Shown: in pieces, positions 1 through 6,123 of the stretch
How positions within the stretch are numbered: position 1 is the stretch's first letter
Layout: each line of letters starts with the position of its first letter
Origin: Solirubrobacterales bacterium
GTDB taxonomy: Bacteria > Actinomycetota > Thermoleophilia > Solirubrobacterales > 70-9
DNA: 64,000 bases
Direction: 5' to 3'
NCBI GenBank assembly: GCA_035997045.1
Contig: DASYIY010000071.1
Location: 6,358 to 70,357 of the forward strand
Made by a program: the position numbers and the translations under genes
Notes under the pieces: generated by a model
Told to the model about the DNA's origin: nothing
The model's input: the letters and a program-made list of their open reading frames with translations, nothing else
Databases searched by the model: none

Positions 1-77
1 TGTGGTGAGCGCACTTACCTTGAAGTGCCCGACAGCGGGGACGACGCGATCGGTGAAGGCTCGGAAGAGGCCAGGAG

Positions 78-3000
78 ATGTACTACCTGGAGAAGGTCGC
101 CGAAGGCGCCGAGGACTACTACTCCGGCGAGGGCGAGGAGGCCGGGCAGTGGCTTGGTGACGCCGCCGCCGAGCTAGGGCTGTCGGGCGAGATCGAGCCG
201 GACCAGCTCGTGGCGATGCTGACCGGCATGAACCCCGCGACGGGCGAGCCGCTTGGGCTGCGGGCCGTCGCCGGTAACGGCGCGGTCCCCGGCTTCGATC
301 TCACCTTCTCGGCTCCCAAGTCGGTCTCCCTGACCTGGGCGCTCGGCGGCCCGAAGGCTGCCGACGAGGTCAAGGCCGCGCACCAGCGCTCGGTTGAAGT
401 TGCGCTCGGCTACATGCAGCGGGAGGCTTGCTGGACGAGGCGAGGGACCGACAGCGCGGGCGAGAGGGTCTTCCTCCAGGGCAACGGCTTCCTCGCCGCC
501 GGCTACCTGCACCGCTCGTCGCGAAACGGAGATCCGCAGCTGCATACGCATGTGCTGATCGCCAACGCGACCAAGGGGCCGGACGGCAAGTGGACCCGCC
601 TCTACCACCCCGCGATCTACGACCACGCCAAGACGGCGGGCTACATCTACGAGGCGCACCTACGCCACGAACTGACCCGGATGCTCGGAGTCGAGTGGCA
701 GCCGGTTCGCAAGGGGATCGCTGAGATCAAGGGCTTCAAGGACGAGTGGCTGAAGGCGTTCTCGACCCGGCGCGCGGAAATACTCGAGGCGGCCGGGGAG
801 GGTGCCTCAGCCCGCGCTCGCCAGGTCGCCACGCTCGCCACCCGCAAGACGAAGGAGAAGGGGCTTGAGCCTGGGAGTCTGCGCGAGCGCTGGCTAGCCA
901 AAGCCGAGGAGATCGGCTTGGACCGCGACGCCATCGCGGCGACGATGGGCAAGGAGGTCGAGCTTGCCGCCAAGCTGACGCTGGCGCAGCTCGACCGCGA
1001 GGTGACGGCCCACGCCTCCCACTTCGACCGCCGCGACGCGATCCAGGCGGTTGCCAACCTGCTTCCCAACGGTGCCCCCGGCCATGAGGTCGAGAGCGCC
1101 GCCGATGCCTTCCTCGCTTCCGGGTCGGTGGTCACCGTGGCCGAGACCGTCAAAGGCACCCGCTACACGACCACGCGCATCTGGGAGCTTGAGCGCGAAG
1201 CGCTGAAGACGGCCGAACAGATGGCGAAGGAGGCCCGCGGCGAGGCCGGCGAGCTGGTCGCCGCCAGGGTGATCGCGGCCCGGCCGACCCTGAAGCCCGA
1301 CCAGCGCGAGATGGTCCGCCGCCTGCTCGCCGGTCGCGAGGGCATCGTCGTGGTGGTCGGAGAGGCGGGCACCGGCAAGAGCTTCGCCACCGTCGCCGCA
1401 GCCGAAGGCTGGGCGCAAGCAGGCTTCGAGCTACGAGCAGCGGCACCGACATGGCGGGCCGCCAACGTCCTTCGCGGCGATGGCCTTGAGGCGACGACCG
1501 TTGCCGGTCTGCTTCGCGACCTTGATCGCGGTGAGGTTGGCCTTTCCTCCCGCTCGATTCTCTTGGTCGATGAGGCCGGGATGGTCGGCTCGGAGGATCT
1601 GACCCGAGTGATCGGCCACGCCGATGAGGCCGGAGCGAAGCTGGTCCTGGTCGGAGACCCAGAGCAGCTTGGCCCGATCGAGGCGGGCGGGTTGTTCTCG
1701 GCGATCGCAGAGCGCACCGAGCCCGTCCACCTCCACGAAGTGATCCGCCACAACCACGAGCTCGACCGCGAGGCGGCGAAGCTCATCCGCGAGGGGGAGG
1801 GACGGGAGGCCCTGAGCCTCTACCGATCCGAGGAGCGGATCACGGTTGCCGGGAACGCCGAGGAGCGCCGTGTGGTGATGGTCGAGGACTGGTGGCGCTC
1901 TTACTCCCAGGGCGAGGACGCGCTGATGGTGGCGAAGCGAAACGTCGAGGTCGAGCGCTTGAACGCGACCGCGCGCGAGCTGGTCCGATCCGAAGGCAGG
2001 TTGGGCAGCGAGGAGATCGAAGTCGGCGGCGCTGCCTTCGCTGCCGGCGATCAAGTCATCACCCGCGTCAACGACCGCGCCGGCGCATCTACAACCGCGA
2101 GCGCTGGGAGATCGCCCAGGTGGACGCCGAGCACGGGCGGATCGTCCTTGAGGGCATCGACCAGGCCCGGCGCGTCGAGGTCGGCCGCGACTATCTGGAC
2201 CGCACCACCTTGGGCGGCGAGGCTCCGGCCCTGCAACACGCCTACGCCGTCACTACTTACTGCGCCCAGGGCACCACCGTCGACCGGGCCTACGTCATGG
2301 CCGATCCGAGCATGGACAAGCAGGAGTTCTACGTCGCCACGTCGCGCACACGCGAGCAGACCTACCTCTACGCCACGCCGGAGATCCAGGCCGAGCGCAG
2401 CGAGTACGCGCCTGCCGGGCCGGAGCGAGACGCCATCGCTCACGTTGGCGAAGCAGCAGAGCGCGACCGCGCCCAGACCGCCGCGCACGACGAGGCGCTA
2501 CGAGGAGAACTGGCGAAGCTGCCCACGGCGGAGATCGCGGCGAAGCGAAGCGAGCTTGGCACCCCGGCCCGCTTCGAGGCGCAACATGAGGAGAGCTACG
2601 CGCGTCAGCTCCGCGCGGTCGAGGAACGGCGCGGCCAGGTCGAGCAGGCGAGCGCCAACCGCGAAGCGGTTGAAGCGCTCGGCTGGCGCGAGCGCCGCCA
2701 CAAGCTGCCCCGCGCCAGCGAAAGCGAGCGGCTATTCAGCGAACGGCTGGCCGAGGAGAGGGCGCGGCTGGCGCAGATGGAGCCGCCGAGTAGTGCGGCT
2801 CGGCGCGAGCGCGAGATTGCCGGCCAGCTTCTCGACACCCGCTCGGCGCAAGCGCTCACAGCCGCGAGGATCGAGCCGCCCGCCTACATCGTCAAAGAGC
2901 TAGGGCAAAGGCCCGCCGATCCAGCGAAGGCCAAAGCCTGGGATAGCGGTGTCCAAAGCATCGAGGGATACCGGCTGGGACATGGCGTGAAGGACACCCG

Positions 3001-3163
3001 CAATGCCCTCGGCCGCGAGCCGCAAGACGCGGCAGCGCGAGCGGCTCGCGAGGCAGCCCGGCGAAGGCTTGCCGAGACTCAGCGCAGGCTCGGCCTTGAG
3101 CATCTAGTCAAGACCAGGCAGAGGACGAGGAGCATCGAGCGAGGCTTCAGCATTGGACGATGA
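78..3163 (+). pseudogene. MobF-family (TrwC/TraA-like) conjugative relaxase fused to a RecD-like helicase, split by an apparent 1-nt deletion near 2079-2086
   Basis: The frame starting at 78 carries the relaxase His motif (HRSSRNGDPQLHTHVLIAN), Walker A (VVVGEAGTGKSF) and Walker B (LLVDEAGMV). After ...VITRVNDR this frame turns into Arg/Pro/Ser-rich junk. The 1892..3163 frame continues sensibly (IYNRERWEIAQVD...AYAVTTYCAQGTTVD...FYVATSRTRE). Only 8 nt (gccggcgc) lie where 9 are needed to stay in frame. The AGGAG sits directly against the ATG at 78, so the N-terminus may also be damaged. Confidence 0.8.
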
Positions 3164-3288
3164 GCGCCCCGACCCGTTTGATCGAAGCACCGCGCTCGCG
3201 GCCGTCAACCCCTTCGGGGCCGGGCGCTTCGCGCCCTTGACTGCCGCTCTCGCGGCGCTGGTTGGCGGGTAGGTCGGAGCAGAAAGAT

Positions 3289-5928
3289 TCAGGTTTGATC
3301 GGGGGGAACACGGGTCATGAGCCAGTCGCGCTCTATCTCTTCGTAGAGCTGCCGAAGTTTGCGAGCATGTGGATGGGCTTGACGACCTTTATCCATCTGA
3401 TTCCTTGCAAACTCAAGCTCCTCGGCTCGCTCGTCTGGAGACAAGCTGGCCTTTCGGGTCCAGACAAGAATTTGACTACCGAAGACATGCCAGACATGAA
3501 CATCTCTGGTGCCGCGTCGGTCAATCTGATCAAGCAGGATCTGCTTAGCTTGCTCGACCTTGTCGCGGGCATCCACAGCATCTGGGTCCAGATACGCTGA
3601 CTTCAAGAGATAGTAGGCCCACTCTGTTTCTACTCGATAGTCATGCTCGCCACCAGCCTTTGCCTGCTGGAGAAAATTACCGGCATGGCGAATGTTGCCG
3701 TGCTGAACCTCGAAAGCCCCCCGCTGAAGCCAGTAGTGGTATGAACTACTGAGCGCCTCCTCCAGCGAGTCATAGATGGCGCGCGCGTCATCAACGCGAA
3801 ACGTCTTACCTATACGACCGTGCCCAATGAGGGCAGTTAGAAGCTTTGCATTGCGAGATTTTCGTTTTCCAGGCGTCGTCCGCATAGCCATCATGTGCGC
3901 GAGGCCCCTGTAGGGCTCAAGCATCTGACCCCGACGGCTCAATTCGTTGACTACAACTTCAGCCAACCTACGATGCCTAACCCGTATGTTATCTCCCCCC
4001 GGATTTGAAAGCAGACGTCTCGCAAGTAGGCGATCTAGTGCATATAGACCGGTGTTACTTATATCGCCAGCCGCAATAAGAATCTCATCCTTCGTTAGTC
4101 CGAAACGAAGTTCAGTAGAAATCGCTAGGACAGCGTAAATCAACTTTTGCTCAGGTTCAAGACTTTCGAACTCCTCAGTAACCTTTAGTTCAAAGCGCTC
4201 CCCCGAAGTCGCCTCAATCATCGCTACAAGTAGCTCCCTATTGCACTCATGGCGGATACGTTCTATCCGTGCGGCATGCGTGAGTTTCTTTAGAGCGCCA
4301 AGCTTGTTGTCTTTCTCTAGCGCAGAGACCAGTAACTCGATGTCACTATCTTCAAGGAGTGGAACGTTAATCTCCTTATAGAGTCCATCGTCAAGATTCT
4401 GGCCCAGAATATGATCCAGACGGGTTACTCGCATACCCAAAATAAGGGTCACATGTGGAAGTGAACTCTTTTGATCCTTCAGTAGATCTCTTAGCGATAG
4501 TCCGAATGTATCGGCGTCATCAATGACAACCGTCAGATCGTTTTGTTGCTCCACAAGTGCTCTCGACAGGTCGTGAGCGTCGAAATCGTGATCAGCCCCA
4601 ATCCAACGTACGTCTCTGCCATCGGCGACCATGCGTAGCGCTAGGCGTCGAAGGGCAGTGGAGGTTCCAGAGCCGGCGGTACCGGCAACGACAATGCAGC
4701 CCTCTAGCTGAACTGGATCGAGCTGGCGTTCAAAATCGCGTTCGATGGCTCGACCCGAGCGAATGTCCTCCCAACTAGGTTCAGCCCCCATCAGATAATC
4801 AGAGCGAGTGGTGTCAGGGAGGCTTGCCAGTTCAGAAACCAGTGGAAGGCTAACTTCTCCTGTTCGCGGCGCGGCAGTTCTTCGAACGAGGTGCCCTTTT
4901 CGGGCGGCATCATCGAGCTCGGCCAACACCTCTATTGCAAACTCGTCAACTGTCGCGCGTATCCACCGAATATTGAAGGTCGCGAGCATTAGCTGGCGAT
5001 CTTTAGGCAGCTGAGGGGTTACAAGGAAAGAGACTGGCCGCATCTCTCTCACGCCCCGAGTTCCTCGGGAGTCGCGCATCGCGATGTATTGCCAAAACAA
5101 TGACTCTCGAATCTCAGTGCCGACAAAGACGGCTGTGTATGAAAGGAGGTCAGCCGTTAGTTGTCGATACAGAGGGTTTTCCTGGAGATGTCGCTGGCCG
5201 TACTGAGGGTCAGCAAAGGTTACGTCGGGAACATCATCGAGGGTTCCATTGAGATGGGTATAAAGAAGCTTGCCTTCGGTGACGGTTGGCAGTTGACCGT
5301 GAAGTCCCGAGTGAGGCACTATCTTGTTTGGAAGATCAAAACGTCGGGAGGCGGCGATCTCTAGGTCGTCGATATTGAGCGTGTAAGCCCTGCGCCAGGG
5401 GAGCGAAAGCCAAAGCTTGTGAATCTCACCGAGACTGTCGGGTGCAACGCGGAGTCGCTTATTAAGGAGCTCGGTAAGTCGAGTTCGGCCTTGGGCCAAG
5501 GCTACGGCGTAGGTGTCTGCGAGGGTTGAACCTTCGTCGGGCTCCTCTCCGGGTTCGATCAGGTCCCAGATGGCTCGCTTAAGTTCGGTGCCTTGCGGGA
5601 CCTGTTCACCCTCAGCGTTGCTTGCACCTGCCGAGAAGCCGGCACCAGTAAAGAGCACCACCTCTCCACGGGCCATTTGGGCTCGAAGGCGCTCAATTGC
5701 GAGATCCCGATCCTCCACGTTGAAAAAGCTACTGGCGGAGTCGGCGGTTCTCTTCTCGGTTGCGCGCTGCCTGTGGGGGCCCATGACGTTGTCAAATGGA
5801 GGATTCACGGCTGGATGTACCGGGGCATGGTCGGTAAGCCCTAGGGGCCTCCCCGCAAAAGGCGCTATCGAGAGCCATGGCATCGAGCGTCCGGGCGTGG
5901 GTGCCTCGCCGTGCCACCGTCGTGCCAC
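3289..5928 (-). CDS. SIR2-like domain / P-loop NTPase (STAND-like) / winged-helix-like / TPR-like helical repeat protein; candidate single-gene antiphage defence protein (Avs5/SIR2-STAND-like)
   Basis: 879-aa ORF. SIR2_2-type motifs: VVLFTGAGFS, YTLNIDDL, YTHLNGTL, VFVGTEIRE. P-loop: IVVAGTAGSGTST. Walker B: LTVVIDDAD. The C-terminal region is helical with TPR-like repeats. A/T-ending codons are far more frequent than in neighbouring genes. The GTG start at 5928 is uncertain; alternative ATGs lie at 5883, 5784 and 5676. Confidence 0.8.
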   Translation of the reverse strand: MARRWHGEAPTPGRSMPWLSIAPFAGRPLGLTDHAPVHPAVNPPFDNVMGPHRQRATEKRTADSASSFFNVEDRDLAIERLRAQMARGEVVLFTGAGFSAGASNAEGEQVPQGTELKRAIWDLIEPGEEPDEGSTLADTYAVALAQGRTRLTELLNKRLRVAPDSLGEIHKLWLSLPWRRAYTLNIDDLEIAASRRFDLPNKIVPHSGLHGQLPTVTEGKLLYTHLNGTLDDVPDVTFADPQYGQRHLQENPLYRQLTADLLSYTAVFVGTEIRESLFWQYIAMRDSRGTRGVREMRPVSFLVTPQLPKDRQLMLATFNIRWIRATVDEFAIEVLAELDDAARKGHLVRRTAAPRTGEVSLPLVSELASLPDTTRSDYLMGAEPSWEDIRSGRAIERDFERQLDPVQLEGCIVVAGTAGSGTSTALRRLALRMVADGRDVRWIGADHDFDAHDLSRALVEQQNDLTVVIDDADTFGLSLRDLLKDQKSSLPHVTLILGMRVTRLDHILGQNLDDGLYKEINVPLLEDSDIELLVSALEKDNKLGALKKLTHAARIERIRHECNRELLVAMIEATSGERFELKVTEEFESLEPEQKLIYAVLAISTELRFGLTKDEILIAAGDISNTGLYALDRLLARRLLSNPGGDNIRVRHRRLAEVVVNELSRRGQMLEPYRGLAHMMAMRTTPGKRKSRNAKLLTALIGHGRIGKTFRVDDARAIYDSLEEALSSSYHYWLQRGAFEVQHGNIRHAGNFLQQAKAGGEHDYRVETEWAYYLLKSAYLDPDAVDARDKVEQAKQILLDQIDRRGTRDVHVWHVFGSQILVWTRKASLSPDERAEELEFARNQMDKGRQAHPHARKLRQLYEEIERDWLMTRVPPDQT

Positions 5929-6034
5929 CCTGTGCCACCGTCACAACCGGATTCAGCCGGAGTCAACCGGACTCGGATGCGGTCCCGCCAGGTCTCCGCA
6001 AACCGCTCTAGCAAGCCGAATTTGAGGCCATAAG

Positions 6035-6123
6035 CGGAGGGGGAGGGATTCGAACCCTCGAGACACCTTTCGATGTCTGCCGGTTTTCAAGACCGGTGCA
6101 TTCAACCGCTCTGCCACCCCTCC
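6035..6123 (-). tRNA. tRNA-Ser (anticodon UGA)
   Basis: Cloverleaf read by hand on the minus strand: GGAGGGG acceptor stem, anticodon loop CTTGAAA, long variable arm, T-arm GAGGGTTCGAATCCCTC, discriminator G. No CCA is encoded. Confidence 0.9.

Follow-up and report, generated by a model that had tools for sequence, protein, structure and literature searches.

An Avs5-like SIR2-STAND protein from Solirubrobacterales belongs to a clade without the Walker A lysine

Does a STAND-type sensor that lacks the Walker A lysine still hold a nucleotide, and if so, what is the nucleotide for? The question is raised by a gene in a 64,000-nucleotide stretch of DNA from a Solirubrobacterales bacterium (assembly GCA_035997045.1, contig DASYIY010000071.1, positions 6,358 to 70,357), the whole of which is called the window here and supplies the coordinates unless others are named. 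The gene lies on the minus strand at 3289..5718 and encodes an 809-residue SIR2-STAND protein of the Avs5 type. An initial annotation of the window had reported that both catalytic signatures of this protein look non-canonical, with threonine for the Walker A lysine and HLNG in place of LHG in the SIR2 domain. It offered three explanations: a shifted alignment, an unusual mechanism, or an inactive or decaying copy. Both departures are present as described. The first is a conserved trait of one clade, whereas the second is a variant already described for Avs5.

A clade without the Walker A lysine

The phosphate-binding loop (P-loop) of the window protein reads G-T-A-G-S-G-T-S-T (residues 346-354; 4657..4683, minus strand), with Thr352, encoded by ACC at 4663-4665, in place of the Walker A lysine. 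Residue numbers throughout refer to the 809-residue form (T352, H155, N157). In gap-free alignments the Thr352 column is lysine in 177 of 177 lysine-type relatives. The AlphaFold2 model of the protein was built on 68 sequences and is confident (pLDDT 90, pTM 0.89); it shows the beta1-loop-helix topology of a P-loop, with T352 at the helix N-cap. Of 259 aligned proteins from two database searches, 197 have K in this column, 42 have T, 13 have V, 2 have R and 1 has Q.

Two phylogenies locate the loss. A FastTree analysis of 225 full-length sequences, made with the P-loop columns removed, places 43 close lysine-less sequences (33 with Thr and 10 with Val) in one clade with a support of 99. No member of the clade has lysine, and the clade is nested within lysine-type lineages. 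With IQ-TREE, 67 sequences and a mixture model, four changes between lysine and another residue are reconstructed, one for the clade and three for singletons. Only Thr or Val, which are isosteric and beta-branched, occurs at the lysine site within the clade, and the tree calls for at least three Thr/Val changes there, each needing two nucleotide changes. The clade diverges to approximately 40% identity, and the loss is considered old for that reason. Judged from the alignments and trees, the absence of the lysine is a derived, old and maintained trait of one clade, not damage. Such a clade inside a family with the canonical lysine seems to be undescribed as far as our literature searches reached; these were not exhaustive, and returned no account of a lysine-less Avs5 clade and nothing specific for the nSTAND5 family.

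The closest controls are the lysine-type nSTAND5 SIR2-STAND relatives (for example P0046 and P0074). They are of equal length, can be aligned end to end at 36-41% identity, and have HLNG, Walker B, the sensor-1 arginine and the lysine of the winged-helix domain (WHD) in common with the window protein, but keep GxxxxGK[ST]. The lysine-less clade differs from them by approximately 45 clade-specific substitutions and by a shorter linker before strand beta1. In the window protein this linker corresponds to 4684-4760 (residues ~320-345), where the distance from the GRAIxR segment to beta1 of the nucleotide-binding domain (NBD) is 5-15 residues shorter in the lysine-less clade. In species-representative genomes, lysine-less genes occur in metagenome-assembled genomes (MAGs) of Solirubrobacterales and Patulibacter, and lysine-type relatives in Acidobacteriota, Chloroflexota, Myxococcota and also Solirubrobacterales.

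Several individual relatives deserve mention. Isolated lysine losses occur elsewhere in the family in P0179 (T), P0222 (V) and P0223 (Q). A relative was found in one of 24 congeneric genomes searched (L004, G009:C1:2563494-2565911); it is of the lysine type, with GAGKST, and is 39% identical. The Solirubrobacterales MAG OY969774.1 (L008/L010/L086/L091/L093) carries the lysine-less gene two to three times, approximately 10.5 kb apart, in copies that span the ends of a 2.58-Mb chromosome record and are each preceded by genes of 1367 and 913 residues without a Pfam match. These repeated copies may reflect either a tandem duplication or an artefact of assembly. Another lysine-less homologue, with the P-loop GSGVST (L011/L088/L092, G043:C2:1344024-1346434), is broken into two reading frames at residue 198/199, and is either a pseudogene or the product of a long-read indel error.

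Kinship with Avs5 and the SIR2 motifs

The open reading frame (ORF) on the minus strand is free of stops throughout 3289..5928. Translation from a GTG at 5928 gives 879 residues, and from a GTG at 5718 gives 809. The start at 5928 is probably too long, since homologues are approximately 809 residues and begin at the equivalent of GTG 5718, which is the start that we favour. Short tandem GTGCCACC-like units at 5911-5942 lie between the 3' end of a tRNA-Ser gene and the SIR2-STAND gene and overlap the GTG at 5928, which fits with 5928 not being the true start.

The protein has three parts. The SIR2 NADase effector domain spans approximately residues 1-282 (4873..5718, minus strand) and is recognized by Pfam SIR2_2 (PF13289; 28.6 bits, above the gathering cut-off of 24.5; E 1.8e-6), by the family profile and by Foldseek. 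The STAND NTPase module, with its NBD, helical and winged-helix parts, covers approximately residues 331-600 (3919..4728, minus strand); in addition to profile and Foldseek matches, it scores 76 bits with Pfam nSTAND_NTPase5 (PF25199; above the cut-off of 34; E 3.5e-21) over profile positions 1-139 of 145. The C-terminal part, residues 601-809 (3292..3918, minus strand), is an all-helical repeat domain of the sensor type. In the AlphaFold2 model it consists of helices throughout 600-801 with pLDDT >90, and by profile it aligns to the C-terminal region of EfAvs5 up to chain residue 745. The ORF, Pfam domains, homologue lengths and model together describe an intact gene for a single-protein Avs5-type sensor, in which a SIR2 domain is followed by a central STAND NTPase and a helical sensor. 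From this composition we infer a role in antiphage defence and NADase activity.

Profile and fold comparisons both lead to Avs5. A profile built from 34 members of the family aligns to EfAvs5 (PDB 9jap_A) with E 7.7e-20 in two stretches, one over SIR2 and the other over the nucleotide-binding and oligomerization domain (NOD) plus the C-terminus, and also matches the SIR2 domains of KomC and ThsA. A Foldseek search of the PDB with the AlphaFold2 model ranks EfAvs5 9jap_A (E 2e-25) and the AVAST5 filament 9nc9 (E 2e-16) highest; DSR2, KomC and ThsA come next, matched via their SIR2 domains. The SIR2 domain superposes on that of KomC/KomBC with a template modelling score of 0.7-0.8 over the target. 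Like Avs5, the window protein is encoded by a stand-alone single gene and has SIR2, STAND NOD and helical sensor in the same order. Also in common are the SIR2 motifs GAGFS, N-x-D and H-x-N-G (the NG variant that replaces HG), the acidic Walker B residues, the sensor-1 arginine and a basic WHD residue, and the motif positions closely parallel those of PaAvs5-1. The differences from Avs5 are the absence of the canonical Walker A GxxxxGK[ST], with Thr in the window protein and Val in some clade members; an ATPase of Pfam type nSTAND_NTPase5, where that of PaAvs5 is reported as nSTAND3; and named hosts in Solirubrobacterales (Actinomycetota) instead of Proteobacteria.

The SIR2 motifs are complete. 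The NAD-binding motif G-A-G-F-S (residues 25-29; 5632..5646, minus strand) aligns to GAGFS of EfAvs5, including the NAD contact A41, and is invariant or nearly so in both the lysine-less and the lysine-type clades. It is followed by T-L-N-I-D (residues 113-117; 5368..5382, minus strand), in which N115 and D117 are invariant in the family alignment. N115 corresponds to EfAvs5 N141 and PaAvs5-1 N110, an asparagine whose mutation abolishes defence in EfAvs5 (PMC11897194) and in PaAvs5-1 (PaAvs5 preprint). The strand that carries the third motif reads Y-T-H-L-N-G-T at 5245-5262 (minus strand), with the histidine codon at 5256-5254 and the asparagine codon at 5250-5248. In H-L-N-G itself (residues 155-158; 5245..5256), N157 occupies the column of the catalytic histidine and H155 stands two residues upstream, as the initial annotation had it. 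In gap-free alignment N157 lies opposite the catalytic His of the KomC/KomBC SIR2 domain, and H155 opposite their Lys.

This motif is no private defect. The corresponding residues of EfAvs5 are H178-I-N180-G (chain numbering +20, checked against the published N141, K379, R453 and R537), and N180, placed from the structure, is named by the authors as an NAD contact that replaces the usual His (PMC11897194). PaAvs5-1 has NG (153-154) instead of HG; its defence is lost in the N153A and N153Q mutants and reduced in N153H, and across Avs5 homologues NG occurs about as often as HG (PaAvs5 preprint). The non-canonical SIR2 signature is thus an already published, functional Avs5 variant and the norm in this family. 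A survey of homologues, as proposed in the initial annotation, finds neither departure unique to the window copy: loss of the lysine is clade-wide (43 sequences), and HLNG is family-wide, in 211 of 246 aligned homologues, with HLHG in 10 and KLHG or xLNG in a few. The SIR2 half therefore adds little beyond the published NG variant, apart from the histidine at -2. This residue, which ends beta-strand 151-155 in the AlphaFold2 model, is nearly invariant (43/43 lysine-less and 160/177 lysine-type sequences) and is present in EfAvs5 as well, a point not addressed in the EfAvs5 and PaAvs5 accounts. The HG-type SIR2 NADases ThsA, DSR2 and KomC have the SIR2_2 fold, GAGxS and N-x-D in common with the window protein, but have the catalytic His directly before the Gly and no STAND module. 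An asparagine is also found in KomC H146N, which is labelled by its depositors as a mutant to trap NAD fragments, whereas the asparagine of the window family is native and conserved.

The nucleotide pocket without its lysine

Apart from the lysine, the pocket is intact. Within the lysine-less clade G346, T347, G349, G351, [ST]353 and T354 of the P-loop are invariant or nearly so. Walker B, which the initial annotation rightly described as intact, reads V-V-I-D-D-A-D (residues 397-403; 4510..4530, minus strand); D400, D401 and D403 do not vary within the clade, and D401 aligns to EfAvs5 D426. The sensor-1 arginine R430 (4429..4431, minus strand) aligns to EfAvs5 R453 in 9jap_A and is present in 42/43 lysine-less and 166/177 lysine-type sequences. 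The winged-helix residue K512 (4183..4185, minus strand) aligns to EfAvs5 R537 and is Lys in 41 and Arg in 2 of the 43 clade members. In EfAvs5, R453 has the sensor-1 role and R537 contacts the ATP phosphate (PMC11897194). R327 is also nearly invariant in the clade; it lies in the GRAIxR segment, whose counterpart in EfAvs5 by alignment is the region of I351. Of the unusual mechanism proposed in the initial annotation, one half has therefore gained ground, the lysine-less Walker A being a conserved clade trait in an otherwise intact pocket, and the other half, NG for HG, has been published as functional.

For pairs drawn from six genes, dN lies at 0.10-0.27 and dS is saturated; the ratio dN/dS (omega) over the whole gene is approximately 0.04-0.16 where it could be computed. 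Counting columns with a conservation of at least 90%, the window copy agrees with the consensus at 134 of 134 for the family and at 200 of 201 for the clade; its one deviation is S594, where R is the clade consensus. Lysine-less and lysine-type pairs of equal overall divergence have similar NBD identities (for example, 0.51 versus 0.54 and 0.44 versus 0.45), a descriptive comparison only as the pairs are non-independent. Conservation, omega and the NBD comparison argue against decay and for a pocket that probably still functions.

We lean, with modest confidence, towards a NOD that has kept a bound nucleotide as a cofactor without hydrolysing it, in a protein that would work like Avs5. The nucleotide would serve as a structural or allosteric cofactor, and would be held by the backbone amides of the P-loop, by S353/T354 with Mg2+, by the Walker B residues D400/D401, by the sensor-1 residue R430 and by K512 of the WHD. 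It would not be hydrolysed, and its affinity would probably be altered. A phage cue sensed by the C-terminal domain would lead to oligomerization and from there to depletion of NAD+. The template for this mechanism is EfAvs5, a proven NADase that binds ATP between the NBD and the WHD, has no ATPase activity and is inhibited in its NADase activity by ATP non-competitively (PMC11897194). Defence by EfAvs5 requires K379 and D426 (PMC11897194), and that by PaAvs5-1 requires G362, K363 and R438 (PaAvs5 preprint). The evidence on the role of the nucleotide in Avs5 points two ways: mutation of the lysine kills immunity, yet the ATP of EfAvs5 is unhydrolysed and inhibits the NADase. A clade that lacks the lysine under purifying selection, with lysine-bearing sisters of equal length as controls, constitutes a natural experiment that bears on whether ATP is a cofactor, a brake or dispensable in bacterial NLR-like sensors (NLR, nucleotide-binding leucine-rich repeat receptor).

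Several results weigh against a cofactor role of this kind and against close kinship with Avs5. Changing the Walker A lysine to alanine abolishes defence in both EfAvs5 (K379A; PMC11897194) and PaAvs5-1 (K363A; PaAvs5 preprint), and loss of this lysine is accordingly expected to cripple nucleotide binding. A compensating Lys or Arg was sought among the clade-specific substitutions and in the NBD alignment, and none was placed in the pocket. The clade-specific substitutions include R204, R371, R635 and R695, and none of these substitutions recurs in the three independent lysine-less singletons. With the NCBIfam Avs5 equivalog NF041814 the protein reaches 13.5 bits, where the cut-off is 1000, a PADLOC scan of the protein gave no Avs5 match and only weak matches to ThsA, Dsr2 and PtuA, and identity to the tested Avs5 proteins is a distant ~15%. 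Failure with the narrow Avs5 models, yet best profile and fold matches to Avs5, together place the protein as a distant, Avs5-like SIR2-STAND protein with a predicted nSTAND5-type ATPase.

The best surviving alternative, which we regard as possible though rather unlikely, is a switch that does without nucleotide altogether. Here the NOD would bind none, the C-terminal sensor alone would drive oligomerization and NADase activity, and the pocket residues would be kept just for folding or for NOD-NOD contacts, as in the P-loop-independent sensor NLRs of plants. The lysine is, after all, essential in EfAvs5 and PaAvs5-1, and neither Thr nor Val carries a charge. Plant sensor NLRs do tolerate P-loop mutation (PMC9528088), and since ATP inhibits the EfAvs5 NADase, shedding ATP binding could be advantageous. 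The pattern of conservation is harder to reconcile with an empty pocket: [ST]353, T354, D400, D401, R430 and K512 are invariant residues of the Mg2+ and phosphate contacts without an obvious structural role, the three P-loop glycines are invariant, and the rate of the NBD relative to the other domains is about that of the lysine-type relatives. A broader and more doubtful proposition is that the lysine-less clade is a natural NLR-like receptor whose switch has been uncoupled from ATP, either with an empty, sensor-driven pocket or with a different ligand. Such a ligand may be another nucleotide or a small molecule derived from the phage or from infection. In either case the inhibition of the NADase by ATP, as seen in EfAvs5, would be removed.

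It is improbable that the window protein is the sensor half of a pair that needs a lysine-bearing helper STAND protein or a separate ATPase, nearby or elsewhere in the genome. The idea draws on plant pairs, in which the sensor NLRs have degenerate or dispensable P-loops (PMC9528088). Plant sensor NLRs such as RRS1 and RGA5 resemble the window protein as STAND immune receptors with a dispensable P-loop (PMC9528088), but they need a P-loop-dependent helper NLR, whereas for the window protein no helper is detectable and an effector domain, an intact SIR2, is carried on the same chain. A conserved neighbour gene was sought at five homologous loci of differing context and none was found. The neighbours across these loci are toxin-antitoxin modules, RHS, RES and Abi-like genes and metabolic genes, with TrwC relaxases recurring nearby in two of the five. 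The window genome, a 2.6-Mb MAG that is 89% complete, has one copy of the gene and no lysine-type paralogue at E<=1e-3, and five other lysine-less genomes have none at E<=1e-10. This makes it improbable that another family member serves as the helper. With unrelated neighbours at five loci and no lysine-type paralogue in six genomes, a partner gene was rejected.

That the window gene is an inactive or decaying copy, a pseudo-enzyme or pseudogene, is very improbable. The suspicion in the initial annotation had drawn on the frameshifted relaxase of the same element, and to this can be added the frameshift-split lysine-less homologue L011/G043 and the normal indispensability of the Walker A lysine. 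The gene nevertheless has a full-length intact frame under purifying selection (omega ~0.04-0.16), none of its 134 family-conserved columns deviates, all SIR2 catalytic motifs are intact, and the substitution has become fixed throughout a clade whose members are as little as ~40% identical. Decay was rejected on dN/dS, on conservation and on the domain-wise comparison with lysine-type pairs. An alignment artefact that hides another Lys and another His at the true catalytic positions has next to no chance of being right, and nothing was found in its favour: alignments to hundreds of homologues and to solved structures are free of gaps and indels at both motifs, the secondary structure of the AlphaFold2 model has the P-loop helix capped at its N-terminus by T352, and solved EfAvs5 also has H-x-N-G, with N180 in the His position.

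A mobile element at tRNA-Ser

The SIR2-STAND gene is low-G+C cargo of an integrative, mobilisable element of approximately 9.6 kb at tRNA-Ser(UGA). Its own G+C content is 47-57%, against 68-72% in the flanks. One end of the element is the intact tRNA-Ser(UGA) gene detected by ARAGORN (6034..6123, minus strand), which bounds the element as its attachment site. The other end is a 52-nt copy of the 3' half of the tRNA at contig C71:2757-2812, approximately 9.6 kb away and outside the window. Also to the left of the window lies a Phage_integrase ORF of 228 residues (C71:5554-6240, minus strand), which is possibly truncated. Together, the tRNA, its partial copy and the integrase delimit the element, which covers window positions 1-6123 plus C71:2757-6357 (L095:2757-12480) and includes a relaxase. 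In this genus the SIR2-STAND family is sporadic and horizontally moved.

The gene is placed between tRNA-Ser(UGA) and the relaxase, a TrwC-type relaxase-helicase on the plus strand (78..3163; Pfam TrwC and AAA_30). The relaxase is interrupted near 2078-2087, where a frameshift falls in a GC run (gccggcgc): of its two frames, one aligns to residues 14-678 and the other to residues 680-1038 of a complete 1038-residue homologue in L002, which is 78% identical. The frameshift is either real or an error of the MAG assembly. The initial annotation was thus correct about the frameshifted relaxase next door, but the damage does not carry over to the SIR2-STAND gene. Immediately beyond the tRNA lie housekeeping genes, which encode an MFS transporter, an ALO-type oxidase, a P450 and pyruvate kinase.

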